Shown: positions 2,141 through 20,906 of the stretch, piece after piece | How the letters are laid out: each line of letters starts with the position of its first letter | Position numbering within the stretch: the first letter of the stretch is position 1 | The notes under the pieces: model-generated | Seen by the model: the letters and a program-made list of their open reading frames with translations, nothing else | Told to the model about the DNA's origin: nothing | Database searches by the model: none | Translations under genes and position numbers: made by a program | NCBI GenBank assembly: GCA_002269645.1 | Contig: NIVC01005215.1 | Coordinates: 1-20,906, forward strand | DNA: 20,906 nt | Direction: 5' to 3' | Source of the DNA: Macrostomum lignano | Taxonomy: Eukaryota

Positions 2141-2445
2141 AGTAGTATAGAAAAAGACGCTTCTAGACCCAGAGCACTTTTTTAATGACCGTTTTAAGGG
2201 TCTAGAGGGGGGACACGGGGGGTAAATAAAAAAACACATCTAAACACCCTTAACACATCTAATCACCCATAATCACCCCTAACAATAAAAATCATTCCCA
2301 ACACTTCCAAACACTCCCCAACACCCCCTCGCGTCCCCCCTCTTAAGACCTTAAAACGGCCATTAAAATAAGGTCTGATCTGTAAGCGTCTTTTTCTATA
2401 CTACTACTCTATAACCCCTTGCCCGCGCCGCAGGCGCGAAGGGTC
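2141..2445 (+). repeat. Left terminal inverted repeat (305 bp)
   Basis: Reverse complement of 19546-19851 with 7 differences by manual alignment. Starts AGTAGTATAGAAAAAGACGC. Confidence 0.95.
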
Positions 2446-2819
2446 ACAAAAGAGTTTAAACTGAGTCATGGTAATAGTAACACTCAACAAAAAATTACTC
2501 TCATAGCCACTATTGGCTAGCTTGCAAAATCTTGCCGTAGCAGGAATTGAACGCCCACTCAGCCATCCAACTCTATAAAAACCACAGCCATCAACCCAGT
2601 TCTAGCTCATCTCTCAGGAAGAAGAAGACAGGCTCCGCGCGTCACAAGTAAAATGGGGTGCCCACCATCAATGAATAAGTTTTTAACAAATCGTCCAGAA
2701 AAATTCTGGACGTCCAGAAAAAAATGACTCAATGCAGTATATACACCATCTTGGGTTGAAAAATATTCTTTTGTGTGTTCTCGTATTCTTTTTTTCTGTT
2801 ACTAAAAATAGAACAAAAA

Positions 2820-3218
2820 ATGACACACGTTACACATGTGCAAAATATAAATGAGTATCAGGTAGGAGATCCAATTGAATACCGAGGTGAGGGACTTTTT
2901 GATTTGGTTGGAACAGCAGCAAATTTTGTTAAAGACAATATGGGGCTTATAGGGCAAGCTGGCTCTGCAGCAGGCTCTATAACAAATGCTGTAAAAGGAG
3001 GAATTGAAGCAGCTAGAGCGGCAGAAGAACTAAAGAAATTGAGAGATTTTAACGACACCCTCTCACAAATAAATGCAATAAAAGATTTAAAGCTGGCACA
3101 AGCCGCACAACCAACAGAAACCCCCACGAAAACCACGCCAATAAGTAATAAAGATATTCAGGATTTTAATAAAATGTTAAATACTATTAAAGGTGGAAAA
3201 GGATTAAAGAAATTTTAA
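2820..3218 (+). CDS. Small Gly/Ala-rich putative virion protein with adenain-type GxG/GG motifs (132 aa)
   Basis: Start chosen at the AAAAATG at 2820. Contains YRGEG and IKGGKG, then a predicted amphipathic and coiled-coil segment. Function is inferred. Confidence 0.6.
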   Translation: MTHVTHVQNINEYQVGDPIEYRGEGLFDLVGTAANFVKDNMGLIGQAGSAAGSITNAVKGGIEAARAAEELKKLRDFNDTLSQINAIKDLKLAQAAQPTETPTKTTPISNKDIQDFNKMLNTIKGGKGLKKF

Positions 3219-3228
3219 CAATATAAAA

Positions 3229-4275
3229 ATGGACTCAGTTAATGATGATGAAAACCGGTTATATTTTATAGGAGAAATTGTAGATACCTTAAATCTTGAT
3301 GATAATAAGCAAACCCACACAATGTTAAAAAGATTGGATCGATTAGGTAAAAAGTTTGACTACGACATCGATACATTTAAACTCGCAGCAAAATATGCAC
3401 AAGAAGGAAGGCCAATATCCTTTAAGAATCGCGGCAGAAATTATAGGTTGACAGACTCCGATGTGAAATTTTTAATGGAGACTCACACTAAAAAGGACGG
3501 CGGATTACTACCCATTCTACCGCTTCTTTTAGGACTTGGCGCAGCTGGAGCAGTCGGTTTAGCCGGAAAAAGAATTCATGATAATGTAAAACAGCTAGGA
3601 GAGTTAAGAGCGAAACAGGGGGGAATCTTGCCCCTTGCAGCTTTGCTCCCAATAATTTTTGCAGGAATTGGAGCAGCTGGAGGAGTTGCTGGCGGAGCAG
3701 CTGGAATTGCAAAAGCAGTAAATGACAAAAAAGCTGCGGACGAAAAAGCTAAAAGAGAGGCCGAATTTCAAAGACAGCAAATAACGCAGGACGCACAATT
3801 TAAACAAAAACTTATCGATACAATTAATAGTAGTTCAGCAACAGCCGAGCAAAAAAGAAATGCAGAAGCTAGGTTATCAGCTGGAAAAGGTTTACTCTTG
3901 CAAGGAACAAATCACGGGAATGGTTTGGTACTAAAAGGAACAACCCAAGGAAGTGGAGTTGTCGCAGATAAACTACATGAATTTGGCCAAACTTTAGAAA
4001 AAACGGGTGAGAAAGCTAAAGGATTTTTTGACAATATTGGATCCAATTTTAGACCAGCTGTTCAGAAATTTTTACTAAGTTAGGAAAAGATTTTAATATC
4101 ATTGAAAAACACGACGGAAGCGGATTATATCTCGAAATGAGACCAAAAGCAGGTTCAGGAATTTTCTTAAATTCAAACGTTATGGGCAATGGATTGCTAT
4201 TACCAAAAGCAGATCTCGAATAGGCTCCTGGGGGAGGGTCTGGACACCAAAAACGCAAAATTAAAAAATCAATAA
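3229..4275 (+). CDS. Adenovirus pX-like membrane-active precursor (two GG-[IL]LP hydrophobic segments; repeated GxG motifs), two compensating frameshifts
   Basis: DGGLLPILPLLLGLG and QGGILPLAALLPIIFAGIG resemble adenovirus pX (RGGILPLLIPLIAAAIG). The frame continues after a T-run slip at about 4070 (KLGKDF...GSGLYL...GSGIFL...GNGLLL) and an A-run slip at about 4206 (LLGEGL), reaching TAA at 4273-4275. Confidence 0.6.
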
Positions 4276-4306
4276 TTCAAACATTATATAAATTTTATTC
4301 TATAAA

Positions 4307-7300
4307 ATGGAAGCAATTTTAGCTCAAATCGACAACCCTGAACTTAGAGCACAATTAATAGCTCAAATCGATGCACAACGAATTGCCGATAGGGCTGAAA
4401 TAGAAGCAAGAATTAGGGCAGAAAATGAGATACGTTTAGAAAGACAATTAAATGATATTGATAACCCCAACCACAAGGACAAAATGGAGCTGAAGTAATA
4501 TATATAGATATAGATATAAATACAAATTATAAAGAATATTTTAAACAAATGAAAGATAAATTAAAGACCATATTAAACAATTATACTATAAGGCCAAATA
4601 ACAAACGACAGCCAATTAAGTATAAAATAGAAGTTGAAACAGAATTTAAAAAACCAAATATTCTTAATGCAAATTCAGAAATTGAAGTAATAAATAACTT
4701 TTCACAAGAATCATATAAAACATTATTATCAATGGGAAATTACAACAATCAATTCGATCAAATAGAAGCTGAGTTTGATGAATGGATAGATAAGATGACA
4801 GAAAACGGATCTGGGTTTATATTTGTATCCTGTAATTCAGCAATAGTAAAGATTGCACCTATAGAAATTCTTAAAGGACGATCACATATGAAGCTCAAAT
4901 TTAAATCACCTATGATTATAAATCCAGACAATAAAGATAATAAATGTTTATTATGGTGTTTATTAATTCATAAATATCACAATCAAGTAGAATCACACAT
5001 TAATAAAATATATAATTATAGACAATATGAGGATGAAATAATAATGAAAAACATATCATACCCAGTAGCAATAGATGATATATATAAGATTGAAAAAATG
5101 AATGGTTTAAATATTAATGTGTTTACAATTGAAGAACCAAAAGATCTAGAAGAAATTTTAACCGATCCAGAATGGTATAAGAAAAGGTGTTATCTTGTTA
5201 AGCCAGCAACTGATATAACAGCACCAGATCAAATCGATCTTTTGTACATGCAGCGCGAAAATGAAACACATTATATATACATAAAAGATATTAGTTCTTT
5301 TTTAAGAGAAAATAGAAATAGATATCCACTATGTAGAAATTGTTTTACATTTAAAAAGGATGAAACAGCTCTTAAAAACCACCAACGATTTTGTTTAGAT
5401 CACAAATTTACTAATGCTATAATGCCAGCATCTGAAGATGCAACCCTAAAGTTCCAACAACATTATATGGCAGTTAAAAAACCAATAGTAATATATGCTG
5501 ATTTTGAAGCAACAAATGTTCCCTTAAAAGAATCACAGACGGCATCTGATGATGGGAATGCACAAAAAAATTGGCACAACAGTTTCCGAATAGTTATTGT
5601 ATATATGTACACTCTGTAGCTGATCATATATTTAAATCAAGGATGATTACTTACCACGGTAATGATGCAGCTAAGCACATGGCAGAATCATTAGTAAATG
5701 TATTTGAATATATTCAAAATCAATATGATAAATTATCAAAAAATATTAATATGACAAATAAGGATAGAGACAATTATAAAAATGCAACAAATTGTTTTAT
5801 GTGCAAAAGACATTTAAGTAAGAATAATAAGATACGAGAACATTGTCATCTAACAGGAAATTATCGAGGGGCAGCATGTAGATCATGTAATGCAAAAGAA
5901 GGAAAAGGATGTAAGGAAATACCAGTATTTTTTCATAATGGTTCCGGATATGATTTTCATTTCTTAGTTCGAGAATTGCTTCATTTAGGAAAGGATGAAT
6001 ATGAAATAAATATATTACCTAAAACATCAGAAAATTACATATCAATAACATATGGTAAGAAATACTCCCATCTAGTTTTTCTAGATTCCTTGAGATTCTT
6101 ATCAACATCTTTAGCAAATGTTGTTTCATCATTAGTTCCAAAACCATGGGATTTAGAAATAGTAAAGAAAAACTTTCCAATACTATTGAATCGTTTCAAA
6201 AAGAAAAACTATCCGAGGAAGAACTAATGCTATTAACTCGTAAGGGCATCTATCCATATGAATATGTAACATCTGAAGACGTATTTTTTCATACCGAATT
6301 ACCCCCATAGAAAAGTTTTATTCAACATTATCACAAACAAATATAAGTGAATCGGATTATGAACACGCTCAAAAAGTATGGAAATACTTTAATTGTAAAA
6401 CATTTAAAGATTATCATAATCTATATCTTAAAGCAGATGTTCTCCTATTAGCTGATGCATTTGAAAACTTTAGGAATCATACATATGAGAATTTTAAAAT
6501 TGATCCCGCATATTGTTTCAGTGCACCGGGATTAACATGGGCTTGTGGTTTGAAACATACAGATGTTAAGATTGATTTACTAACTGATCATGATATGTTG
6601 TTAATGATTGAGAGAGGAATTCGCGGCGGATTCTCGGGTGTACTAGGAGATAGATATACTAAAGTAAATAATAAATATCTACCAAATTATAATAAAAAAG
6701 AAAAATCATCATATGTATTATATCTAGATGCAAACAATTTATACGGTGGTTGTATGAAACAAAAATTACCAATAGCTGATTTCCAATGGGAAGATGACCC
6801 CGATTATTACAAAAATATTCCCGAAGGAAGGGGCTGTATCGTAGAAGTGGATTTGCAATATACTCGGGAAGCAAAAGCAAAAACATATAAATATCCTTTA
6901 GCTCCAGAGCATTGTTCAGTTAATGAAGATGATTTATCACAAACACAAAAAGATTATCTTAAAGCAGATAATGCAAAACATCTAGCAACAAAAAAATTAA
7001 TATTAAATTTACATGATAAGAAAAACTATGTAGTGCATTATAAGCTTCTACAATTTTATGAAAAGCAGGGATTAAAAGTGTCTAAAGTACATCGAACAAT
7101 ATCGTTTATTGAGGAAGATTGGTTAGCTAAATATATTGACTTTAATTCAAATCAGAGACAGATGTCAAAAACAAATTTTGAGAAAGATTATTGGAAATTA
7201 ATGAATAATGCTTTTTATGGAAAAACGGTTGAAAATATTAGAGATAGAACCCAATTCCATTTAGAAAAGGATATTGATAAAGCAAAGAAATATTTCTCAA

Positions 7301-8254
7301 AACCTAACTTTAAAGACTTTATAAAATTTGATGATAACTTTATGGGTATTCATATGAGAAATAAAACAACAAAATTTCTTAAACCAATATTTATTGGAAT
7401 GGTTGTTTTAGATTATGCAAAGCTGGTAATGTATGAATATTATTATGATGTTATAAATAAAACATGGCCAGATAACTATCCAATATATGCAGACACCGAC
7501 AGTTTGGTATTTAAGGTTGAAACAGAGGATCGGGCAAAGCCGCGAACCAAAGGTTCGATGTCTATAAAGATATGGAAAAAATTAAGGATACATTGGATAC
7601 CTCCGACTATCCGGATAACCATCCTTTAAAATCAGATCAAAATAAAAAAGTTGTACTTAAAATGAAAGATGAATTAAATAGCAAAATCATAACCGAGTTT
7701 ATAGCAATAAGATCAAAATGCTATGCATTTAAGTTTTAGGACAGGAGGGAGAGGTAAAAAAAATAAAAGGGGTATCAAGAGCAGCAGTAAAAAAGATAAC
7801 ATTTGATGATTATAAAAACGTACTTTTAGATTACCTTAATACAATTGAAAATTATCATGCTCCACAATATCGATTAAATTCAGATAAGCATCAGATGTTT
7901 GTCATCGAGACAGATAAAAAAACATTAAGTCCATTTGATGATAAAAGATATTTAGATGATAAAATTAAAACATATCCATATGGTTTAAAAGAAGAGATAA
8001 AAAATATGATAAAAGATAAAAAACAAAAAGAAGATATAATAAGTAAATATAATGAATACAAAGCGGCAATAAATAATTATTATTACGATTGTGATTGTGA
8101 ATCCGAATGTGATTGTGAATATAATACATTTCTAGAATATGAAAAAGATATAGATAATTATTATTCAACATTTCCAAAAGAACTTAAAAAATTAAATAAG
8201 GAAAAAGTCTTGAATAACTGGAAGAGATTAACAGAAAAATTACTTATCGGGTAA
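4307..8254 (+). CDS. POLB: Protein-primed family B DNA polymerase (about 6 single-base frameshifts)
   Basis: ExoI IVIYADFEA, EndoVII-like CFMC..EHCHLTGNYRGAACRSCN, ExoII FFHNGSGYDFHF, KGIYPYEY, ExoIII YLKADVLLLADAFENFR, motif A YLDANNLYG, motif B KLMNNAFYGK, motif C YADTDS and LSPFDDKRY. Frameshifts at about 4466, 5567, 6195, 6304, 7541 and 7735 join track ORFs 4307, 4549, 5571, 6550 and 7895. Confidence 0.95.
7529..7559. repeat. Double-hairpin element copy A, inside pPolB
   Basis: AT-CGGGC AAA GC(C)CG-CGAACC AAA GGTTCG-AT interrupts the ...ETED/VYKDM... segment just after YADTDS. Confidence 0.8.
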
Positions 8255-8293
8255 AAAACTAAAGCATGTAATTGTTTAAGCATAATATCCATT

Positions 8294-8590
8294 TCATTTC
8301 ATATATATTGAGCCAATTTCCTCACAGTCGTCAGGGTAACTTAAACAATCCTTTATTTTTTTCCTAAGTTTTTTTATTTTTCTAACCAATCTATCTATTT
8401 CAATTTCAATTACTATTTCAGCATAAACAATATCTTGTCTTAAAAAACGTTTTCTTTTATCTATCTCATATCGGATGGGAAACATATCGTCCCCATACTC
8501 ATGATATTTCTGAGATATAATTATATTTATTTTTTTATTAATATCATTAAGTTCACGCTCTTTAGTGATAAGGATTTTTATCGTATCCAT
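8294..8590 (-). CDS. Hypothetical protein (98 aa, helical/coiled-coil)
   Basis: Intact ORF with AAAATG start context; no recognised motif. Confidence 0.6.
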   Translation of the reverse strand: MDTIKILITKERELNDINKKINIIISQKYHEYGDDMFPIRYEIDKRKRFLRQDIVYAEIVIEIEIDRLVRKIKKLRKKIKDCLSYPDDCEEIGSIYMK

Positions 8591-8605
8591 TTTCTTATAA
8601 AAAAT

Positions 8606-8938
8606 TTAGTCTTCGTCGTCATCCTCCCAAACAGCCGCCAATTTTACAGTCCTATCACTCTTTTTATTATTTGTTTGTTTTAGTTTAAATTGCAATCCAC
8701 CCTCGTTGCAGTATTTCATAACAAACGCTTTAGGTTTATTAATAACTAAAACAGGAAAATTTTTAACATCATCTCCGCTTAGACATAAAATTTTTTGCCC
8801 ATCTAATTGTAAAAATATTGATTGAAGCCCAATAAATTTAACCTGTCTCAAACATATAATATTATATTCTTTATTCTCCAACATATTGGGTGTGAGATAA
8901 TTAATCACATTAGAATCGGTTTTGAACCAGCTCTCCAT
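8606..8938 (-). CDS. Hypothetical beta-rich protein with acidic tail (possible OB-fold ssDNA-binding protein)
   Basis: Intact 110-aa ORF with AAAAATG start and a C-terminal WEDDDED. The fold is a guess. Confidence 0.55.
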   Translation of the reverse strand: MESWFKTDSNVINYLTPNMLENKEYNIICLRQVKFIGLQSIFLQLDGQKILCLSGDDVKNFPVLVINKPKAFVMKYCNEGGLQFKLKQTNNKKSDRTVKLAAVWEDDDED

Positions 8939-8964
8939 TTTTAATCTAAAAAAATAACAAAAAA

Positions 8965-9447
8965 ATGAAAGACATTTATGTTTGTAATAAATGTAATGTG
9001 ACTATGCACAGAGGGCAAACAGCAAACGGAGATATATATCATATGTGTTATTCATGTTCTAAAATATATCAATTTGAAAAAACAAAAAAGATTGAAAACT
9101 CATATTACTATTTTAAAAACACAATTTTAAGAAATCTTACAAGAGACATTTCTGATCCAATTTTAATTCCCGGAAATAATGTTTATTTATATAATAACTT
9201 TTTCCATTTAAATAAAGGAAAGGGATTAAGTTCGAAAGACTCCGAAAGGATTTTAATTTTAGTTGGATATTATTTCAATTTTCTTATTCGAGAGAATACA
9301 AAGTTTATAAGGATAGGTAACATACCTAACGAAATGTTATTGAAAAAGTCATTGGAATTTTTATGTATTGATAAAAAATTTAAACCTAGGATCAGAAGAG
9401 AGTTACCACTTTGGGAAGAATATATAACATATGCATTAAAAAACTAA
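8965..9447 (+). CDS. Hypothetical protein with N-terminal Zn-ribbon (CNKC-x17-CYSC)
   Basis: Intact 160-aa ORF with two CxxC pairs. Confidence 0.65.
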   Translation: MKDIYVCNKCNVTMHRGQTANGDIYHMCYSCSKIYQFEKTKKIENSYYYFKNTILRNLTRDISDPILIPGNNVYLYNNFFHLNKGKGLSSKDSERILILVGYYFNFLIRENTKFIRIGNIPNEMLLKKSLEFLCIDKKFKPRIRRELPLWEEYITYALKN

Positions 9448-10099
9448 ACAACCTGAAGTTCTACAGCACTTCCTGACCGCGGGCTTTGTGCCCCAGTAGC
9501 AATAGTTTCAGGTTCGTAAATGCCTAATGTTTCTATCGGTGGAGCTTTGGGTTTATCGAGTCTCAACTCTTTTAATTCCATATCGGTAAAAGTTTCAACA
9601 TCTAAAATTCTATTTCTATCTTTTAAATATTTTTCATATAATTCAACCGCGGTTGATAATTCATGAATCGTTATCTCTCCGTCATCCAATATTTTTTGCA
9701 CATATAAATATAATTGATTTTTATATTGCTTGCAACATCTCTTAATGATTTATATTTTTCCTTTCTTTTTTTAAGATATAATTTAATTGCTAAAAGTATT
9801 GATAAGTTCCTGATCAATTCAAAACCTGATATTGAGCCAATTGAAATACCTAAAAATAATTGAGATAAATTAAGAGTTGGAATAGATTGTAAAATACCTA
9901 AAACGATTACACATAACATTGATAAGCTTCCAAATCCAATATTGAAAAAGTCCATATTTCTTATATGGTTTGAAACTCTTCTTACTTTTTTAGCATATAA
10001 ATCATAATCATAGTTAATACGATCAACATTACTTAACATCTGACCTTTACGTTGGTTGAACCGGTCGCGTTCCCATTTATCTGCTTCAGATACCGACAT
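9444..10099 (-). CDS. Putative two-TM membrane protein with C-terminal KILDDGEITxxE motif (frameshift at about 9700)
   Basis: Track ORFs 9671-10099 and 9444-9701 join at a TATATGTG slip. Two hydrophobic segments are followed by a basic run (KKRKEK). Confidence 0.6.
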
Positions 10100-10409
10100 T
10101 CTCGTCTATTTTTAATAGCACCAAAATGAATTCCCCGCTCTTTGGGATTTGTCCCGAGCTCAATAGGTATTGTATTGGAGTTATTCTTTCTTTTTTCTCC
10201 CATTTAAATCCTATTTTCCAAAACTCTTGAAGTATAATATGATTTTTTAATAACTTAATTAATTCTTGAAGCTTCTTATTATCCTGAACATTTACAGTAC
10301 TAAATAAAAATTTGGTATGAGATTTGAATGTTTTTATATTTGATTCTTGTTTAGGAATAGGAATAATAACATTATTTTGCCGCATCGATGGAGTTCTACT
10401 AAAAGCCAT
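10086..10409 (-). CDS. Hypothetical protein (107 aa, starting MAFSRTPS)
   Basis: TATAAAATG start at 10409. The longer track ORF overlaps the end of the fibre gene. Confidence 0.5.
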   Translation of the reverse strand: MAFSRTPSMRQNNVIIPIPKQESNIKTFKSHTKFLFSTVNVQDNKKLQELIKLLKNHIILQEFWKIGFKWEKKERITPIQYLLSSGQIPKSGEFILVLLKIDENVGI

Positions 10410-10440
10410 TTTATATAGAAATATTTTATATATAAATATT

Positions 10441-12341
10441 TTATATTTGAGTAGGAGGTTTTTCCAAATAAGCAGTAGAGGGAAAAACATAACCAAACGA
10501 CGTACTACCACATACAACTGCACCACGAATAAAATGTGCAGCATCCGCTCCACCAGTTCGAGCACCAAAACCCATAAGGGTTCCAGATTTATCTAAAGTT
10601 CCCCAAGTTCCACTATCATATGTGAAAACGTTCTGTCCAATGAGGGTAAAAGAATCACCAGCAACATTGTATGACTGTAATCGGTACCAAACCCTTTGAT
10701 TTAAAATATTAACTTCAAATAAATGCCAATGCCGTTATCAATATTAGCATAGGCTACAGTTTGATCCGCATCACTACTAACATCGTTACGAACCGTAGAT
10801 CCGTCTGATTTTTTATTACTCCAAACAACTCCAAACCTATCAGTCCAGCATATATTTTGAAAATGTGTGAAATTGAATTGTAAAGCACCACTTACTCCAG
10901 AAGTTTCACGAGTAATTCTAGCGCCGTTTTGATAATCGATATAAGAAGCGTCACCAATTAAAGAACCGACTGGATATATATCTCCGGCGGTTGTTGGATT
11001 TTGATATCCAGACCAATTGCAAATTACTGGTTCGAACAAGGCCGCATCAATAGCAGGTATTCCATCCAATTTATTTTTATCGCTTCCAGACATTCTACCA
11101 TTTGATGTTGGAGTAGCTAGCTGATCTACGTACGCTCGCGGAACTGCAGAAAGTATTTGAGTTGGCCAATTAAGATCTTGAATTTCAACACGGTGTTCAA
11201 ATAATTGTATTTGACGAACCTCGATAGGTTGTGTACCGGTACCACCAGTTGGGAAGAATACGCTATAATATTTCCAAAAATTAGTCGTTAAATTAGATAG
11301 AGCAAATGATGTTGCTTGAACTGGTGATCCCGACGTAGTTAATGTCGTCCATGAATCGGTAGCAACATTTTTTGCGCGAACCGACCACCCGAGGGTATCT
11401 CAATTGTTTCACTGCCTGTAATTCTTAATTCAAATATTCTTCTATTATAACCTAAAAATTCAAATTGAATTTCCATATTGGTTGTGGTTCCGGTATTTGG
11501 TGACCATTGTGTCGCAAGGCTTCCATCTCCAACTCGAAAAGCTGTGTTGCCATTTTCAGATGCTGTAAGAACAACATCAGGATTTGAAGTATTTGATGTA
11601 AGCGGCGTGGTAAAAATATCGGCGTCGGTTGCATTAGCTCGCTCGTTTACTTGGCCTAGAGTTATCGAGTCTGCGTTCTCTGTTCCAAATAATAAATTTG
11701 TTAATTTAAAATTATTCATATTAATATTACCACTACGAGTGGCAACTTGATTATCGACATAGTTCTTATCAACCACTGAATCACTAGTTGTAATTGAAAC
11801 ATTTATAATTCGGTTGTTGCTCATATCTAGGTTTCCGGTTGCGGTGGTTTGAACATAACGTGAATCAGAATCAGTTCGAGAATAAGAATCAGTTACATCT
11901 CTTTTTAAATTTAATCCATTATCAACTTCGGTTTTGGTATAAGAATCGGCTACGTTCCGTTTCAAATTTAATGAATTATCAACTTCGGTTTTGGTATAAG
12001 AATCGGCTGTATTGCGTTTTAAATTTAATGAATTATCAACTTCGGTTTTGGTATAAGAATCGGCTGTATTGCGTTTTAAATTTAATGAATTATCAACTTC
12101 GGTTTTGGTATAGGAATCGGCTACGTTCCGTTTCAGATTTAGTGAATCATCTATTTGAGTTTTGGTATAGGAATCTGCAACATTTCTTTTTAAATTTAGT
12201 TTATATCAACTTCACTTTTTTTATAACCTTCATCTCATTAATATATCGATTATCTCCAAATGTAACACTTATTCCACCAGATGTGCCACCACCACCACTA
12301 CTTGTTGTTCCGTTCCATGAGGGTGTTCCAGAAAATAACAT
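10441..12341 (-). CDS. Fibre-like adhesin: YTKTEVD repeats, YadA-stalk-like motifs, F5/8-type-C-like domain, L-type lectin-like C-terminal domain (3 frameshifts)
   Basis: Starts MLFSGTPSW at 12341. Contains 19-aa NLKRNxADSYTKTEVDNSL repeats; LDMSNNRIINV..DSVVDKNYVD; PLTSNTS..AFRVGDG..QW..DSWTTL..YY; GRMSGSDKNKLDGI; and DNGIWHLFEV and GFGARTGG..HFI. Slips at about 12200, 11385 and 10734; stop at 10441-10443. Confidence 0.7.
11860..12225 (-). repeat. 57-bp coding tandem repeat (about 6.5 units) in the fibre gene
   Basis: Directly visible; two central units are identical. Confidence 0.9.
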
Positions 12342-12405
12342 TTTTTACTGTCTATTTTATAGAGTCTAAAATAGTCTTAAATACTTCGGGGTTTAACTTC
12401 GAGCT

Positions 12406-12795
12406 TCATTCGAAAGTTTTATATAAAAAATACAACGCCGCTTGCCCGCAATAACTTTTATCAAAGGTTTGAAATTGTTCGTGATGATCTCCACATAAAC
12501 GATTTTTAGTATGATTAAATTTATCTTTTATTTCCTGTAACGGAGGAAGCGCGTATGAATCAAAAAAATAAACAAGTTTTGGTTTTGAATAAACTGCTGA
12601 CCAATGAACACCATTTTCTTTTGTTGTTTCAATATTAACAATGAAAGATCCATATTGTGGTAAGTCTTTGATCTCATCTCGCATAACACATCTGAATGGT
12701 TTTATTTTTAACTGCCTCGCCCAATTTGTTAATTCGATATTGCTTGTTGTGTCCGTTCCATATCTTTGTTTAAAATCATCCCACGTCATGGTCAT
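12406..12795 (-). CDS. PRO: Adenain-family cysteine protease
   Basis: IVN..NGVHWSAV, YFFDSYA and FQ..DKSYCGQ give the His/Asp/Gln/Cys catalytic set. Intact ORF. Confidence 0.92.
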   Translation of the reverse strand: MTMTWDDFKQRYGTDTTSNIELTNWARQLKIKPFRCVMRDEIKDLPQYGSFIVNIETTKENGVHWSAVYSKPKLVYFFDSYALPPLQEIKDKFNHTKNRLCGDHHEQFQTFDKSYCGQAALYFLYKTFE

Positions 12796-12796
12796 T

Positions 12797-13006
12797 TTAT
12801 GTTCCTGAAAAACTCTTGGTTTTAGTTAGTTTCGTAGGTGTGGGTTTTAACAATTCCTTTCTTATTTTATCAGCTTGTAACTGCCTTAATTTTGCTAGTT
12901 CTAGTTCGTAATTATCTTCAGCTTTTTTAACTTTTTCTGATTGTTTTTTTATTAAATTATTATTATTATCGTGCTTTGCACGCGAACATGTTGTTCGATT
13001 ACCCAT
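12797..13006 (-). CDS. Small basic coiled-coil protein (69 aa; MG N-terminus)
   Basis: AAAAATG start; the stop abuts the adenain start. Confidence 0.5.
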   Translation of the reverse strand: MGNRTTCSRAKHDNNNNLIKKQSEKVKKAEDNYELELAKLRQLQADKIRKELLKPTPTKLTKTKSFSGT

Positions 13007-13016
13007 TTTTACAGTA

Positions 13017-13801
13017 CTAAACCTGTTTTATACGTAAAATTATTGTTATTGACTGCCCACCAAAACTTATTAATCTATCGCTTTCATCTACAATCCTAAT
13101 ATAAATTGATTGAACATTATATTGATTTAATGGGTAATATATTGGGGTTTGAGGTGAACAATCATTTTCTCTCCAATTGGAACAGCAAGAAATGGGATTG
13201 AATAAATAATTCCACGTTGAACCAAAACTCCGTTATCGTCTGTTATATAACCACCGTTTGAAATGTCGGTTGTTATATTAATTGTATTTACTCCACCCTC
13301 TATATTTCCAACTGTATCACCGGTGCTTGATGTGGTAACTATTCGGGAATTAAATCCAAGTATGGTTCTGAGTGAATTTGCAATTGTGAAATCAACCTGA
13401 TATCCGGATCCTAGTGATAGTGTGAATCTGCCAGACGGTAAATCAACACCTATAACAATTGCTCCTGCTACCCAATCACCATTAGTTGTTAATTCTCCTT
13501 CTATATAAGCATTCAAATCAGTATAGCTATACGCTCCTGGGTTAACGCTAAATGTTGTCCAATTGGCTCCGGAATCTTTAGAATATCTAAATTGATTATT
13601 TGTTGCATTAATTAATTGAGGCATGTTGAAAACCGAAAATAGTATTAAACCTATTTGATAACTTAGGCTTTGATCAAGTTGTAATGGATCGCGCAATTGA
13701 ATCCGTTGCTCGCTGGTTGTCATTATAAACTGTAATGTTGTACTAAATTTTGAATTAGTTCGATCTACCAATTGTTTTATAGTATTTAAATTTGTAGTCA
13801 T
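13017..13801 (-). CDS. PX: Minor capsid protein (penton, single jelly-roll); frameshift at about 13160
   Basis: NNQFRY, PGAYS, LRTILGF and VNTINITTDI, with a restored C-terminus PIYYPLN..IYIRIVDESDRLISFGGQSITIILRIKQV. Confidence 0.85.
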
Positions 13802-14635
13802 TTTTATAGTGGGAAATTAATCGACGAAGTCGCGTGCTATGCACGATCTCTTCTTCCTCATTATCTTCTTTTATCAAATTTGTTAAAATTCTATGTTTCC
13901 TTTCTAACCTCGGATTGATATAAATATGTTTGTATTGGCTATCATCCCAAATTTTTTTACACATACTTTTAAATGGTTTTGCATCCAATCCGGGATTAAA
14001 TCTAGCGTGTATATTTTGTAAATCATAATTATCTAAATCAAACATTACACAACAACTTGCATTCTTTTTTATAATCGATTCTAATTCTCTAAAGGATTGA
14101 GTAAGATAAAAAGCTCCAATTCCATCTCCTCTACCACTAACAAAAATTTCCTTTTGCAATTCTTGATCACCGTCATTAATACAATCATCAAAAATAATTA
14201 GTGTTTTATCATGTTTTGGAATTTGATCATAGGCTAATCGGGTTGATACTCTAACAGTTGGGGCTCGATCGGACGAAGTCCGCGACCCTTCGGGGCGATC
14301 GGTGATGTTTTCTGGCTGTTGTGCCATTGTTTTACATAAATCCTCAATGTCTGCTAGATTAAATCGCGGTTCGTCATCATCCTCATATTGCTCATATGCT
14401 CTTAACATTCTAAACAAGACATCTTTTTTTAATTTGTTTTTTAATCCATGTTTAAGAAATTCATAATATTTTATTCTAGGTTTATTAGTATAAATTATTA
14501 AATTATTATAGTCTAACATTCCATCTGTTGTTAATAAATCGTAAACAAAGTGTGTTTTTCCTTTACCTGATCCTCCGATTACTAAACAAAGAAAAGGATC
14601 ATTTGGAAATATTTATTGTGTTTTGCCTTTACCAT
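13755..14635 (-). CDS. ATP: A32/FtsK-HerA-like genome-packaging ATPase; frameshift at about 14612
   Basis: Start MVKAKHNK at 14635. Walker A LVIGGSGKGKT lies upstream of the track ORF; Walker B LIIFDDC; SGRGDG..FYLTQS. Confidence 0.92.
13820..13847. repeat. Double-hairpin element copy B, at the ATPase 3' end
   Basis: AT-CGAC GAA GTCG-CGTGC TAT GCACG-AT. Confidence 0.8.
14268..14299. repeat. Double-hairpin element copy C, in-frame inside the ATPase
   Basis: AT-CGGAC GAA GTCCG-CGACCC TTC GGGGCG-AT; encodes RPEGSRTSSD in an uninterrupted part of the ORF. Confidence 0.8.
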
Positions 14636-16140
14636 TTTTAAAGAAATAATTTAAATAGGCGCGACGGTCGGAGACCTGCACTGCGCGAACAATCGTGCCA
14701 TCAGCTTTAGCAATTGACATATATTCCTCTAGAAACAATACGTGGGCGTCAAGTGCCTGATTACCGGTTTTATTAATCTCTAACATATAATTAAGTCCAA
14801 TATTGGCTACGTTTTCTTTCTGTGCCGTTAGATCATAAACAACCACTGGATGAATGTTTAGAAACTCTGTGGGTGTGTACTGAGGGACGGCATACGCTTC
14901 ATTTTTGCATAATCTTGATAATATTTTATAAAATCATTAACATTATTATTTGCTATATTTAAATTTAGGGGGTCTTTAACCGGATAATATTGATCATCAA
15001 CCTGCAGGCGGATATTCTGAACATTAAACTCGTTAATAGCTGCAGCCGCATTGTCTGTTGCGGTGGCTGCTTGTTCTGCTATGGCACCGGATTGAAGCCA
15101 ATATAAATCCCCATTTGCTCTTTTACTCCTTCTATTTGTTATCTTAAACCAAACAAAAATATATCTCACCCGACGTTTTGATGTCAGTATTTGCCACTGG
15201 AATGAATCCTGGTTATTATTAATGGTTCGCATAAAATGTCGACGATTCAAATAAAATATTTCCTGATCATGCGTTAACTGATTATCGATGTGTTTTAAAA
15301 GTGGGGCTGTTACCTCAATAGTTGGTACGACTAATTGAATTGAATCTATACGAACTGCTATATCGGTTGAAATTGAGGTTCCATAAAGTATCCTAGGCTG
15401 ATATCCACCAGATATTTGCAACTGTATCCCAAATTTTAATCCTTTCCATACCCGATTTGGTGAGAAAACCCAAATAGTGGAAAGATTGAAAAGTCCTGCT
15501 CATATGCTGTTGCTGTGGTTAAAACCGCGACTGGGAATTTATTCTGACGATCTATAAAACCAGTATTAATATCTTTTGTATTAGTCATAGTGGTTACAAC
15601 TGGAACTATGTTTGTATTAAGGTAAACAATTAGCGCTGCAGTATCTGCACCGGCTGCGTTTTGTACATTAGGGAAAACTACTGCTTGACCGTTACCTTTA
15701 TCCGGCATCCACCCAACATTATCACCAACTTGTTTTGATAAATAAGTATAATTTAAATGTTTCAAAACTCCATTAATCTCTGCGGGGTTTGATGATGTCT
15801 CAACCTCAGCACCATTAACAGTTAGTTGAGCTTGGGAAAAACATTTATAAAACCAATCATTTTCTATTATTATTCCGGATCGATCTGCGATATCTCCGGC
15901 TGCAAGAGCAGTTCCATCATTTCTAGTATACAACCATCTAACGCGGAAAAACGCATTTTTCATATCCAATATAGTGTTGGTTGCGCCGATGTCAAAAGTT
16001 ACCGTTCCAGTAGTAAAGTTATTTGAATTATCACTTGTTGGTAGGGTATAATTTAAATCTCTTGCTCTGACCTCATTAATATACTGTCGGTGCTTTTTGA
16101 AATGAAATTTATCACTCCACATAGTTTTTGTTTCAGCCAT
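14613..16140 (-). CDS. PY: Major capsid protein (double jelly-roll); frameshifts at about 15457 and 14903
   Basis: VTFDI, ILDMKNAF, FSQAQLTVNGAEVE, PLFGF/NRVWKGLKFGIQL, RVRYIFVWF, NIRLQVDDQYYP and PVVVYDLT. Joins track ORFs 15436, 14858 and 14613. Confidence 0.88.
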
Positions 16141-16174
16141 TTTTTTAAGTTAAAAAAGTTTTTTATGTTAAAAA

Positions 16175-16845
16175 ATGAGTCAATTTATGGACGTTGATGG
16201 AGAGTTAGCGATTTATAAAGAGAAGCAAAGATATTCTGATTTTGTTAGAAATTTACAAAAAAGAAAGTTAGGAATACAATTAGCGGGTGAAAGATTTGCT
16301 GCTCCTTTTGTTAATCCTATTACTGGGAAAATTAGTGAACTAGAAAAAACAGATAAAGATCTTCTGGAAAAAATTGCTAAAAATACGGAGCCAAAAGAGG
16401 ATGAAATTTTGGATGAGCCGCCTGCTTATGAGACTGATCAAGCAATATTTAGAGTTGCAGAAATTAGACGTGAAGAGATTAGGGGTGGAGTTGAACAATA
16501 TCCGAGACCTGCACCAACTAGTATTGCTGTGACAGATTTAGGTGGTGGTAATTATCGAATTGGTAACGTTGTTAAAGATCGAAATGAACTATATAGAGAA
16601 TTGGGCGGAGCATTTAATATTATTACGAACCCTAGGGTAAAATTTAACCCGATTTATATACTAGGGATGAATTAATAAGTGCTAGAATTTTTTATGATGA
16701 GTTAGGAGGAGCTGTTAAAAATACCAGCTTGTATAAATGGATTGTTAATTCTATAAATAACAAACCAGCTGTTGGTGATGGATTTAAAACACCGCGAAAA
16801 CTTGTTTTAGCTGCTGCGAAAGCTGCTGGACATACTGGAGTTTAA
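16175..16845 (+). CDS. Polinton conserved protein, PZ-like C-terminal LxLxxAAxxAGHT motif, with a PPxY motif; frameshift at about 16650
   Basis: The alternative frame continues YTRDELIS...VGDGFKTPRKLVLAAAKAAGHTGV to TAA at 16843-16845. Contains LDEPPAYE and IRGG. The gene is divergent from the MCP. Confidence 0.55.
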
Positions 16846-16873
16846 TTAATTGTTAAATTTATTTTTTTATAAA

Positions 16874-17377
16874 ATGGATGAAACAATAAAAGACCACCTT
16901 TGTAAGCCTATTTATGATAAAGTTGGTTCTGACAGAATACTAAATAAAATATTTCAAGATGAATTAATAATTGCAAACCGTATTAAAACAATACAAATGA
17001 GACTTGGATCTCTTTATGAATTATTAGCTATTAAACATTTTGGTTTTGAAAAAGTAAATAAAATTGATTTAATTCATACAGAAAGAAAAGTTGCGTTAGA
17101 GTTAAAATCTTCTGATAACACAGATAATTCATCAAGTCGATTTAGAAATATTCAAAAGTTATTAGAATTTAAATATGTTAATCCCGAATTTGATTTATAT
17201 TATATTTGCATTAATAATACTACTAAAAACCCCGTACAAAAAGTATTTGATAATGGAGTTACCTTGTTAACTGGGGAATTTGCTTTAAATTTTTTATATG
17301 GTGACCAATATTTAGAAATTATTAAATTGATAGAAACATGTTTTTTAAACATTAAAAATGAACCAAATAGTATTTGA
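16874..17377 (+). CDS. PD-(D/E)xK type II restriction-endonuclease-like protein, Eco47II/Sau96I family-like (167 aa)
   Basis: RIKTIQMRLGSLYE, KIDLI, ALELKSSDNTDNSSS (as I recall, the family pattern is E-x-K-x3-N-T-x-N-S) and LLTGEFALNFLYG. Intact ORF; no methyltransferase motif was found in the element. Confidence 0.7.
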   Translation: MDETIKDHLCKPIYDKVGSDRILNKIFQDELIIANRIKTIQMRLGSLYELLAIKHFGFEKVNKIDLIHTERKVALELKSSDNTDNSSSRFRNIQKLLEFKYVNPEFDLYYICINNTTKNPVQKVFDNGVTLLTGEFALNFLYGDQYLEIIKLIETCFLNIKNEPNSI

Positions 17378-18962
17378 AGGAGGATTTTTAGATGTTCAAA
17401 AAGGATTAACAAGCTTACCACCAATATTTACTACTGGGAGGTATACGGGTGAGCTACACCTACCATCAATGAACTTCACAGGTTAACCCGTGGCCTGAGT
17501 GAGGAAGGCAATGTCCTTGCTAGTCACTATTTGTGGCGACATCTCCAAATTGCGTGAAACCCGTCATACAGCTTCAAGTACCACTTCAATTGAGAAATCT
17601 TTTGAAGGAACAGAGGTAACTCCTCTTCCCAATCGGACTTCGTCCGCGAACCTATGGTTCGATGGTAAAAAGCTTGAAGACACGGTGGCAATGCGCAGCC
17701 AAGCTCCTAAGTATTTTAAATATAAGGAGAAGGTTCAGAGAGCAGACGGAGATGGGCGGTAATTATCGCCGCTTAAGGTGTGCTCCAGCCTCTTTCGAAA
17801 GATTGAGGGTAAACTACCCGGCACTCGCTTAGATTTGAGATTAAATCCTGATGACACCCAAAAGCCGATTCAATTCCCATAAATGGAATTGATTGGTTAG
17901 CATACTATCATGACTTAGCATACAGAGATGCTGATAAGAACACACCCGAGGAAGCATTAAGATTAAAACATGAAGCCGATCAAAAAATGATTCAAGGATT
18001 AGATAACTTGCAGGGATTATCGGTAGGTCAAAAATTAACTAGGTGGATGGTTAAAAAGATCTTGCAGTCTAAAGTTAAATTTGGTTTGGGAATTAATTAT
18101 AATCAACATGGAAATAATTGTGTTGAGTGTTTGTTGTTAAGTGGCGGCGGGTTAAGTTCTGATGAGGCAAAGATTCTTCATAAAGAATATCGAAAACCTA
18201 AATTTTATAGAAAAATCATGAACTTCAAAAAGAATGAAATTTGGTATGCTGATTTAATGTCGATGCCGAACGAAAGAGGATATAAATATATCTTAACCAT
18301 ATTAGATGGTTTTACTCGATACGCGTGGGCTGTTCCTTTAAAATCCAAAAAGGGAGAGGAGGTTGCTGCTGCTTTTAGAAGTCTTGGAGAAAAAAGTGAA
18401 AGGTTGTGTGTTGACGAAGGAAAAGAATTTTACAATCCTCACATGTATAAATTGTATCATTTTGAAAAAGGACAAGAAAGGAAAAAGGACGCGAATGGGG
18501 AGTATATTAATAAAATTTATTCTATTTATGGAGAGAGTAAAAACGCATTAATAGAAAGATTTAATAGAACTTTAGGTAAGAAATTATGGTTTCAGTTTAG
18601 TCTTAATGGTAACCAAAAATGGGTAAAAATATTACCAGACGTAGTGAAAGATTATAACAATTCATATCATTCGGCGATAAAGATGACTCCTCAACAAGCT
18701 TATAACAATCCTGAAAATGTTAGGGTTACTTTTGGAGATTTTGAAAAAAAGAAAAAAAGGTTTTAAGGTTGGTGATTCTGTTTATATCTATAAATGGAAA
18801 GATAAGTTTGAAAAGGGAAGAAAAGGATATTGGAAAATAAGTGAGAAATTTACCATCAGTAAAGTTTTAAATACAAATCCTACAACCTATATAATTGCTG
18901 ATAAGGATGGTGAAGAAATATTGGGTTCTTTTTATGAGAACCAGATAATGTCTGCGAACTAA
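17358..18962 (+). CDS. INT: PLA2-integrase fusion: parvovirus-type phospholipase A2 followed by RVE (DDE) integrase; split by a group I intron; frameshifts at about 17858 and 18762
   Basis: Exon 1 (17358-17483) ends GELHLPSMNFTG. Exon 2 from 17817 reads PGTRLDLRL..PINGIDWLAYYHDLAY..KHEADQKM and runs in frame into WYADLMSM, YILTILDGFTRY, VDEGKEF and IERFNRTL, with a C-terminal FKVGD..FEKG..GSFYENQI. Confidence 0.88.
17484..17816 (+). ncRNA. Group I self-splicing intron, IC1-like, 333 nt, no homing endonuclease ORF
   Basis: P1 CAGGU/GCCUG with U.G at the splice site; CUAGUC-P2.1-GGCGAC; P3 CAUCUCC (17540-17546)/GGAGAUG (17748-17754); P element AAAUUGCGUGAAA; Q element GCGCAGCCAAG; P7 GAGCA (17740-17744)/UGCUC (17781-17785); P8 GGCGGU/AUCGCC; P9 with GAAA loop. 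Removal restores FTG-PGT in frame. Confidence 0.92.
17632..17663. repeat. Double-hairpin element copy D, in the intron P5 extension
   Basis: AT-CGGAC TTC GTCCG-CGAACC TAT GGTTCG-AT; both stems are perfect. Confidence 0.85.
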
Positions 18963-18972
18963 GTTCAAACAG

Positions 18973-19197
18973 TTACTTAAGACAACATGGTAGTAAATTT
19001 TTTATTACAAACAAAAACAATATTATTACTATTATTGTTACTAATATTATTATTGACATTTGTTCAACTGTTATCAAACTTAAATTTTCATTAAGTTCAT
19101 TAATTGGAACATTTCCGATGTAGGAATAATTTACCTTCATTTTTTTATATATATTTTTCATAATAAACGTCGTTTCTGTTATAGAATAATAGTTCAT
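18973..19197 (-). CDS. Small single-TM protein (74 aa)
   Basis: AAAAATG start and a C-terminal hydrophobic stretch IIILVTIIVIILFLFVI. Confidence 0.5.
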   Translation of the reverse strand: MNYYSITETTFIMKNIYKKMKVNYSYIGNVPINELNENLSLITVEQMSIIILVTIIVIILFLFVIKNLLPCCLK

Positions 19198-19213
19198 TTT
19201 TTAAATATTTTTT

Positions 19214-19528
19214 TCACATAAAAATTTCACTTTCATTCTCTGAATCACTGGTTTCATATGAACTATTTGTTGATTCGGAATCTGTTGATCTAACCTCCCA
19301 ATCATCCGAATTTAAATAATCTCCAAGTTGAAATATTAACTCACCCTCTTGTTCTAAATCATACATCTCATCTAGCTCTAATGGATAAAGCTTTAGGTCA
19401 TGCTTGTCGTCATATTTTAAATAAACTTCATCAATTATTCCATTCAAAATATGTTGTTTTATTATCTCTGCATTTTTAGCAACAGTCTCAAAAGTATCAC
19501 TAACAGAAAAGGTGTAAACTCGGGTCAT
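19214..19528 (-). CDS. Acidic Ser-rich hypothetical protein (104 aa)
   Basis: Intact ORF starting just inside the right TIR, with AAAAATG context. Confidence 0.6.
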   Translation of the reverse strand: MTRVYTFSVSDTFETVAKNAEIIKQHILNGIIDEVYLKYDDKHDLKLYPLELDEMYDLEQEGELIFQLGDYLNSDDWEVRSTDSESTNSSYETSDSENESEIFM

Positions 19529-19545
19529 TTTTAGTAACAGAAAAA

Positions 19546-19851
19546 GACCCTTCGCGCCTGCGGCGCGGGCAAGGGGTTATAGAGTAGTAGTATAGAAAAA
19601 GACGCTTCTAGATCAGACCTTATTTTAATGGCCGTTTGTAAGGTCTTAAGAGGGGGGACGCGAGGGGAGTGTTGGGGAGTGTTTGGAAGTTTTGGGAATG
19701 ATTTTTATTGTTAGGGTGATTATGGGTGATTAGATGTGTTAAGGGTGTTTAGATGTGTTTTTTTATTTACCCCCCGTGTCCCCCCTCTAGACCCTTAAAA
19801 CGGTAATTAAAAAAGTGCTCTGGGTCTAGAAGCGTCTTTTTCTATACTACT
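19546..19851 (-). repeat. Right terminal inverted repeat (306 bp)
   Basis: Ends GCGTCTTTTTCTATACTACT and matches the left TIR inward to GACCC at 19546. Confidence 0.95.
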
Positions 19852-20906
19852 GTCCTCTGCCTGTCTTCAATAAGTATTTCCTGCACTCATTTTGCCTCAG
19901 AGTATTGGTTAGCGACTTCGATGAATGCTTTCAAGGCCAGCTAGGATTCAAGGCGAGCGGAAAGAAAGAATAATTTTCTTCCCACGAGCGATATGAGCAG
20001 CTCCCAGTGCCGTTTGCGTGACAATTCATCAAGGGTGCCGAATGCGTCAGTCAGTCTTTCAACCCGAATTTTTTTCGGCTGCTGCGGTCTTGGAAATGTA
20101 TGGGAAAATGGTTAAATATATAGAACAGGCCGTGTCAGAAAACTGGGATTTCAGCGGTTTAGCAGGATCAGAATGCGATGTCAATAATACTAGTGCAGAG
20201 GAAAACACAACACCGGAGATGTCCCAGGCACCTGATCTTTTAAAGTAGCATTCAGTTCAAACCGAGTAACTCCAAATTAAAAGGGGTAGGTCGACAAAAG
20301 GAGCGATACAAAGGTTAGTAGGTCGCTTAACCCTCGCAGAGGAACAGTGAGAGCAAACAGATTTTTAATATTCGAACGCGCTGAAGAGGCAGTGAATAAG
20401 GGAACTGAAAACCCGAGGCTGGTTGCGGCTGCCGATCTGATTAGCTGCATCAAGGGACTTGAGCAAAATCGGAGCTCATTTGCATGCTAGCTATGGCTCC
20501 TATAATTCCTTACAGCGCTTATACATGTAGTCGTAGATTTAGTCTCTAGAGACGCTGAAGTCAAGGGGTTCCGCGTGCCTCGACCCTTCCGCCCTCCAGG
20601 CTCTAAATGGCACCGTAATCCTACTGAGATTGGCATCTCAGGAATAAAAAACGCTGGTTTCCTAAAAAGCCTCGCCTTCAAAAGCTATTCAAGTCTGACA
20701 GAAGTGGTGCAGGTCTTTGGTTTGCTTTTGATGCGACCTACAAACCAACAGACAGCTTATATGTGCTTTATCTGGCTCATAATAAGTTCTGAATATGCAT
20801 GAATCAGAATGCCCACTATGATACCTTTCAACGGATGTTCCGCACTTCAGTGGGCCAACAATCGACGACTACGTGCTCATTCATCTGTTCGAGGATTCAT
20901 ACGAGA

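Follow-up and report, generated by a model that had tools for sequence, protein, structure and literature searches.

Animal Maverick elements probably pair a mobile group I intron with a restriction enzyme that lacks its methylase

The DNA analysed here comprises 20,906 nucleotides of the Macrostomum lignano genome (assembly GCA_002269645.1, contig NIVC01005215.1, positions 1 to 20,906), and this whole stretch is referred to as the window. Between positions 2141 and 19851 it holds an element of the Maverick/Polinton type without any GGNCC sequence, in which a gene for an Eco47II-like nuclease is followed by an integrase gene with a group I intron. At a probability of roughly 70%, we consider that Mavericks of this clade use a methylase-less GGNCC restriction enzyme as homing nuclease of a group I intron, with immunity provided by purging of the sites and by the intron at a conserved Gly-Pro. 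Animal Mavericks would thereby pair a mobile group I intron with a restriction enzyme. The evidence consists of the absence of the site, the family of the nuclease, the intron and its exact position, the lack of a methylase and the mutual exclusion of nuclease and intronless alleles.

An exact scan of 2141-19851 yielded no GGNCC. This agrees with an earlier note on the sequence, which had reported zero sites inside the terminal inverted repeats (TIRs) together with about 11 GGCC and at least 14 GGNNCC as control motifs; the scan gave 11 and 14, respectively. The sole GGNCC of the window is the GGGCC at 20852-20856, which had been noticed too and lies in the right flank outside the element. At a GC content of 32.6%, Markov models of orders 0, 1, 2 and 3 predict 12.5, 20.7, 15.9 and 10.6 sites, so that the former estimate of about 9 was too low. 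The Poisson probability of finding none ranges from 1e-9 to 2.5e-5 across these expectations. In the k-mer count against Markov and codon-shuffled backgrounds which the earlier note had proposed, GGNCC (0 occurrences) was the most depleted motif and the only one with zero counts among 2304 gapped 4-mers. The only 5-mers missing on both strands are GGACC, GGTCC, GGCCC and GGGCC, and 306 positions of the element are one substitution short of GGNCC. The left flank (2.1 kb) is free of GGNCC as well, yet it consists of a tandem repeat.

The expected absence of Gly-Pro dipeptides from uninterrupted open reading frames (ORFs) was found, too: the 22 ORFs of at least 100 amino acids contain none, compared to 6.9 expected from residue shuffles. 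Synonymous-codon shuffles of the same ORFs predict 4.2 GGNCC sites against 0 observed, a test that is weak on its own because some shuffles likewise yielded 0. In control elements Gly-Pro was somewhat low as well (17 vs 26 expected). A purely compositional cause of the GGNCC absence was rejected, since the Markov models predict 11-21 sites and the controls described below are not depleted.

Many relatives of the element are present in the same genome, which contains Wnt genes and hence is that of an animal. We compared 38 elements, which were chosen from search hits and are neither random nor independent, counting element-homologous bases. Family A is that of the window; the polymerase segment of family B is about 55% identical to that of A, and family C about 50% to both. 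All 14 elements with the nuclease also carry the intron, and their 162.9 kb contain 0 GGNCC and 143 GGNNCC. Ten elements have the intron without the nuclease (2 single-copy GGNCC in 163.4 kb). None of the 10 intronless elements encodes the nuclease, and all 10 exhibit the Gly-Pro GGNCC site; one of them, C620, was assigned to this class from a separate allele analysis, and the PLA2 region is absent from the fetched DNA in 4 of the 38 elements. The exclusion of nuclease and intronless allele has a Fisher p of 0.0017, calculated on copies that are not independent. Intronless elements of the B and C lineages contain further GGNCC sites that recur between copies, four being common to C620 and C1101 and one of these also to C273. 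Family C has one GGNCC per TIR. By these counts, avoidance relaxes only in intronless lineages.

Three polymerase lineages with 50-55% identity are all purged. The non-element parts of the loci contain 242 GGNCC (224.5 expected), and the cores of distant elements with protein-primed PolB (pPolB) contain 81 (88 expected); host DNA and distant pPolB elements have about 2 sites per kb. The earlier note had named equal depletion in nuclease-lacking relatives or in the host as a refuting result. This result was obtained in part: the host and the distant pPolB elements are not depleted, but nuclease-less copies of the same clade are nearly free of sites (2 in 163 kb). The suggestion of the note, avoidance rather than methylation, is supported, as the nuclease belongs to a GGNCC-cutting family and no C5 methylase was found. 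It needs two corrections: the avoidance is clade-wide and not self-protection only, because nuclease-less clade copies are also nearly site-free, and the one conserved Gly-Pro, not mentioned in the note, is split by a group I intron. A further motif, CCNGG, is depleted 2-3-fold in family A (7 vs about 20; CCWGG 3 vs 12-13), which B and C do not show; it may reflect another avoidance that is weaker or older.

The nuclease gene of the window (16874..17377, plus strand) is free-standing and encodes 167 amino acids. Its assignment to the Eco47II family of PD-(D/E)XK endonucleases, with the motif D65..E76-x-K78, is based on PF09553 (RE_Eco47II), on the fold and on conserved residues. PF09553 is matched by 32 of 36 aligned homologues, a family B copy clearing the cut-off with 30.1 bits, and the catalytic residues D65, E76 and K78 recur in at least 90% of the 36 rows. 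The predicted model (pLDDT 89) showed EcoO109I as best fold match (TM score 0.68) and AvaII as another among PDB structures; when ranked by E-value, DdmD came first, with a partial match and a TM score of 0.34. A sequence search of the PDB with the nuclease gave no meaningful match. Eco47II recognizes GGNCC, EcoO109I RGGNCCY and AvaII GGWCC. Family and fold thus point independently to a likely cutting at a GGNCC core, and together with the site avoidance they make GGNCC the likely cleavage site. The dN/dS values of 0.12-0.38 in 10 pairwise comparisons indicate that the nuclease is under purifying selection.

It could be argued that the protein is a conventional homing endonuclease whose long target contains a GGNCC core, the depletion being historical or compositional. 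Known homing nucleases have long targets, which avoids toxicity, as stated in a section of PMC3943268, and family A shows a 2-3-fold shortage of CCNGG too. This explanation does not account for the complete loss of the 5-mers from three lineages with 50-55% identity. Composition models predict 11-21 sites for the element of the window, and the nuclease consists of a restriction-type core of 167 amino acids without an added DNA-binding domain. We regard it as very improbable. The element-wide absence of a 5-mer argues for a short target, as opposed to the 14-40 bp of homing endonucleases.

The intron interrupts the gene directly downstream. Exon 1 (17358..17483, plus strand) of this PLA2-like/rve-integrase gene overlaps the nuclease stop codon and ends at the Gly codon GGT, as defined by the reading frame: from 17358 the gene reads ...H-L-P-S-M-N-F-T-G, then stops and resumes with P-G-T-R at 17817. 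Exon 2 (17817..18962, plus strand) starts at the Pro codon and encodes the remaining PLA2-like domain and the rve integrase; in the window copy its frame shifts twice, at about 17850-17880 and at about 18760. A naturally occurring intronless copy (L063:4084-5400) encodes the parvovirus-type PLA2 (PF08398) and rve (PF00665) domains in a single frame, and therefore it is the integrase gene itself that is interrupted. As a Gly-Pro codon pair always contains GGNCC, this gene must read GGNCC when uninterrupted. Indeed, intronless alleles exhibit GGTCC or GGCCC at the intron site, and in all copies of the IC type the intron is located between GGT (Gly) and CCN (Pro).

The intron of the window (17484..17816, plus strand, 333 nt) is IC-like with P2.1 and P5abc and contains no ORF. 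It matches Rfam RF00028 (Intron_gpI) with 61.1 bits (gathering threshold 50, E 3.8e-15), and related introns score 66-89 bits; this match was obtained when 17400-17900 was scanned alone, the whole-element scan giving none. The boundaries were set from intronless alleles and from a contig joint to 17817. The guide sequence is located at 17493-17497, P7 at 17738-17744/17781-17786 and P9.0 at 17787-88/17814-15, and the last base is A. P1 carries a U-G pair at the 5' splice site, the exon end CAGGU pairing with GCCUG. Among 20 aligned cores 96.1% of the cells are paired (38-51% in slid controls), and both partners vary in 17 of the 64 pairs, among them 4 of the 6 that make up P7; as the introns are related, these changes are not independent events. 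Terminal A (17816 and 8 other introns) occurs in a multi-copy intron lineage, with the G-C pair of the G-binding site unchanged. An optional double hairpin of 30 nt in the P5 region (window 17633-17662) is common to some introns of families A and B (L049, L053, L056), and several copies have short palindromic inserts of a similar kind close to the beginning of PLA2.

A second intron type was detected in other family A copies (L009, L016, L027, L028, L031, L035, L042, L044). It has the 5' splice site, P2.1 and P5abc in common with the IC-like introns and differs from them in its catalytic core. We take this core to be IE-like on account of its motif; there is no Rfam match. The in-frame reading past this intron is Gly-Ala-Gly-Leu instead of Gly-Pro-Gly, with an uncertain 3' boundary. 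Searching for the 5' splice site by means of a DNA pattern returned 26 loci, none of them with Maverick genes.

Nuclease and intron are arranged in two ways. In family B the nuclease ORF is located inside the P2.1 loop and reads into the intron core, and this layout, at this very site, is also seen in the metagenome locus L068. In family A the nuclease is free-standing immediately upstream of the PLA2-integrase gene. Most close homologues extend into intron core sequence; in the best 30 nuclease loci the intron is present in 28, and the PLA2 gene is absent in the other 2. The nuclease is thus encoded in or beside an intron disrupting its predicted target, as is characteristic for homing endonucleases. 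The system would work like homing and differ from known homing systems by its putative five-base target. Nuclease-less family A copies contain in the same slot a gene for an endonuclease-VII/HNH-like protein (L037:5874-6470 and six more copies), which varies strongly between copies; the HNH label is derived from PHROGs, Pfam giving no match.

Retention of the nuclease gene after it left the intron might also be expected if the enzyme were mainly a weapon against co-infecting viral DNA or host chromatin in lytic growth, with intron homing as a side effect. A five-base cutter would shred unpurged DNA (about 2 sites per kb in the host and in distant elements), and PMC11620839 describes an intron endonuclease of phage PhiPA3 that acts in virus-virus interference. 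The many copies without nuclease, with another endonuclease-like gene in its slot, indicate however that it is dispensable, and in most close homologues the reading frame continues into the intron core. Since this explanation has the observed steps in common with homing and differs only in the dominant benefit, we consider weaponry as the main function to be quite unlikely.

With regard to protection, the Pfam scan of the 24 window ORFs detected no C5 methylase (N4/N6 methylases being covered by the same scan only). A genome-wide search for PF00145 gave 12 matches, 0 of them at the Maverick positions located here. The element lacks a cognate methyltransferase and, as judged from its genes, is not a restriction-modification system. 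More distant homologues of the nuclease were found in 63 viral contigs, many of them labelled as giant-virus metagenome-assembled genomes. There, the neighbouring ORF encodes a C5 methylase in 26 of the 27 cases scanned with Pfam (out of 78 neighbouring ORFs, mostly the convergent downstream one). In 54 of these loci, after removal of 9 near-duplicates, GGNCC occurs 280 times (421 expected), and GGSCC is the most depleted palindrome (42 vs 116). Viral contigs were also scanned with an alignment of the close nucleases and, separately, with the PLA2 domain, which revealed no relatives.

These giant viruses suggest another source of selection. The purge could be driven externally by a GGNCC restriction enzyme that a giant virus, as helper or competitor, brings along, with the intron hiding the last site and the Mavericks' own nuclease being a passenger or secondary. 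Nuclease-less relatives are purged too, giant-virus contigs frequently encode homologous restriction-modification pairs, and for Budvirus an endonuclease with predicted GGNCC specificity is mentioned together with a methylase in part of PMC10960955. On the other hand, intronless elements are maintained, carry the site and acquire further ones, and other pPolB elements of the same genome are not purged. Furthermore, the nuclease is under purifying selection, lies within or beside the intron and is never combined with the intronless allele. An external cutter as the driving force is therefore unlikely in our view.

Several findings weigh against the preferred reading of a GGNCC enzyme acting as homing nuclease. 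The PF09553 match of the window nuclease itself (20.6 bits, E 3.8e-4) is under the cut-off of 25.9 bits. The partial depletion in giant viruses fits protection by methylation, which leaves the specificity unfixed. Intron-bearing family A copies without nuclease are near-purged (2 sites in about 163 kb) and three intronless A copies have only 1 extra GGNCC in 48 kb, so that the gene's presence in an individual copy does not predict its depletion. In family C the structural module is 98.5-99% identical to that of family B (L061-L062 vs L049-L050), and its depletion must thus be regarded as inherited and not independent; the polymerase half, at 49.5% identity, is purged as well. The 3' end of the intron is A in the window and in 9 of the 20 IC-type introns overall, and G, the usual terminal base, in 11. 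In the joined contig X17 the junction equals that of an intronless DNA allele (L090), so that this contig is not evidence of splicing. No run is listed as RNA, and no joint attributable to splicing was found in the contigs of four runs. The free-standing nucleases form one well-supported clade among the intron-encoded ones, according to which this form looks derived, in a tree with an arbitrary root and weak deep branches. Finally, GGNCC levels of the host are normal, so that expression of a frequent cutter by integrated copies would be toxic.

Under the reading that we favour, the enzyme would be derived from a giant-virus restriction-modification pair by loss of the methylase. The nuclease gene may then have been inserted into the P2.1 loop of the intron, bringing along an AT-rich start context of its own. 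Such a context (AAAATG) was observed at the window genes starting at 2820, 3229, 4549, 16175, 16874 and 17358 and also in L049 and L058; as it includes the intron-encoded nuclease, it suggests an own nuclease promoter inside the intron. When Mavericks with and without intron replicate together, the sole cut in a purged genome would occur at the intron site, and repair would copy the intron in. With the intronless allele as sole target in a purged genome, a restriction enzyme would behave as a homing nuclease. The intron would serve as the antidote of the enzyme and the enzyme as the intron's means of spread. In the family of the window the gene would have left the intron for the upstream slot that otherwise holds the endonuclease-VII/HNH-like gene, giving an arrangement as in collaborative homing. 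Nuclease carriers would need the intron and lineages without both would regain sites; shared replication and module exchange with carriers would best account for the clade-wide depletion. Unpurged DNA such as other viruses or host chromosomes would be cut at intervals of about one kilobase. With about 2 sites per kb in the host, integrated copies must keep the enzyme silent, or else it must also serve as a weapon at the time of replication; its expression is probably confined to replication of the free element. With somewhat less confidence, we also favour the more specific view that, in an animal DNA virus, the restriction enzyme of a giant virus became a homing nuclease with a target of five bases, the methylase being replaced by genome-wide erasure of sites and by a self-splicing intron that hides the last one.

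Comparison with known systems shows both parallels and differences. As in mobile group I introns, an endonuclease ORF is located in a peripheral loop, the predicted target is split by the intron, and intronless, full and ORF-less states are all present. Unlike known mobile group I introns, the carrier is an animal Maverick, and unlike their nucleases the enzyme belongs to the Eco47II family with a putative 5-bp target, uniqueness arising from the purged carrier genome. I-Ssp6803I is a homing endonuclease of the PD-(D/E)XK type with a long target. Collaborative homing was reportedly described for cyanophage psbA by Zeng in 2009 and by Bonocora and Shub in 2009. The window resembles it in that the nuclease gene adjoins a gene with an ORF-less intron; it differs in that the free-standing form looks derived (with a weakly placed root) and alternates with the endonuclease-VII/HNH-like gene. 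In a passage of PMC11296320, a free-standing endonuclease beside an ORF-less intron is described as a precursor of intron-encoded genes. The type II systems of giant viruses (Eco47II/Sau96I-like, GGNCC) belong to the same nuclease family; these are paired with C5 methylases, whereas the Mavericks are without methylase and would be protected by site loss and the intron.

Protist Polinton-like viruses from a few protist groups possess RF00028 introns of 309-376 nt in a protein gene, according to parts of PMC12220804. Unlike in our elements, another gene is concerned, and these parts identify no intron nuclease and do not mention site avoidance. A parvovirus-like PLA2 domain of animal Mavericks was described as adintovirus PLA2X in a section of PMC8502044; in contrast, the PLA2 domain detected here forms one protein with the rve integrase and is split by a group I intron. 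Nuclear group I introns are stated in a passage of PMC3679873 to be limited to rRNA genes of microbial eukaryotes, and those of animals are mostly mitochondrial (placozoans, corals, sponges), as outlined in portions of PMC11835236 and likewise of PMC8393795. Possible restriction-modification systems and homing nucleases of Polisuviricotina are mentioned in part of 10.64898/2026.10.13.758929, and endonuclease domains of nematode pPolB in part of 10.1101/2023.08.22.554363. No report of the combination of nuclease, intron and avoidance was found in open-access and bioRxiv full texts, supplements excluded.

The element itself (2141..19851) was classified as Maverick/Polinton by its TIRs and by matches to pPolB, rve integrase, Adeno_PX and an A32-like packaging ATPase, the latter being weak. 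The arms of about 300 bp are located at about 2141..2445 (plus strand, first bases AGTAGT) and about 19546..19851 (minus strand). In this copy no 6-bp target-site duplication was found, as 2135-2140 and 19852-19857 differ; given the tandem-repeat left flank, it may be recombinant or misassembled at one end. Several frame changes occur in the window copy, and the pPolB gene (4549..8254, plus strand) is split into several reading-frame pieces in the ORF list, one of which matches both PF03175 and Endonuclease_7. At 5643-6227 the pPolB region thus contains an endonuclease VII domain as a fusion. The morphogenesis block (12406..16140, minus strand) contains the packaging ATPase with its weak Pox_A32 match and genes which, by gene order and motifs, presumably encode protease, minor capsid and major capsid proteins. 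A minus-strand gene at 11807-12226, perhaps for a fibre-like protein, contains about 5-7 copies of a 57-bp tandem repeat. Family C appears to be a recent module swap, in which the structural and integrase module of family B was joined to another polymerase and other TIRs.

In M. lignano a group I intron is located in a protein gene of a high-copy element of an animal nuclear genome. If the reading given here is true, working group I introns exist in such a gene, and the Mavericks have a restriction-intron system in which the intron is obligatory for nuclease carriers and Gly-Pro is banned from the proteins of the element. The rule of long targets of homing nucleases would be overturned, as purging of the carrier genome can provide uniqueness. 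The intron would gain a positive role as antidote, and a route would lead from restriction-modification to homing. These Mavericks would then co-replicate and exchange alleles as viruses.

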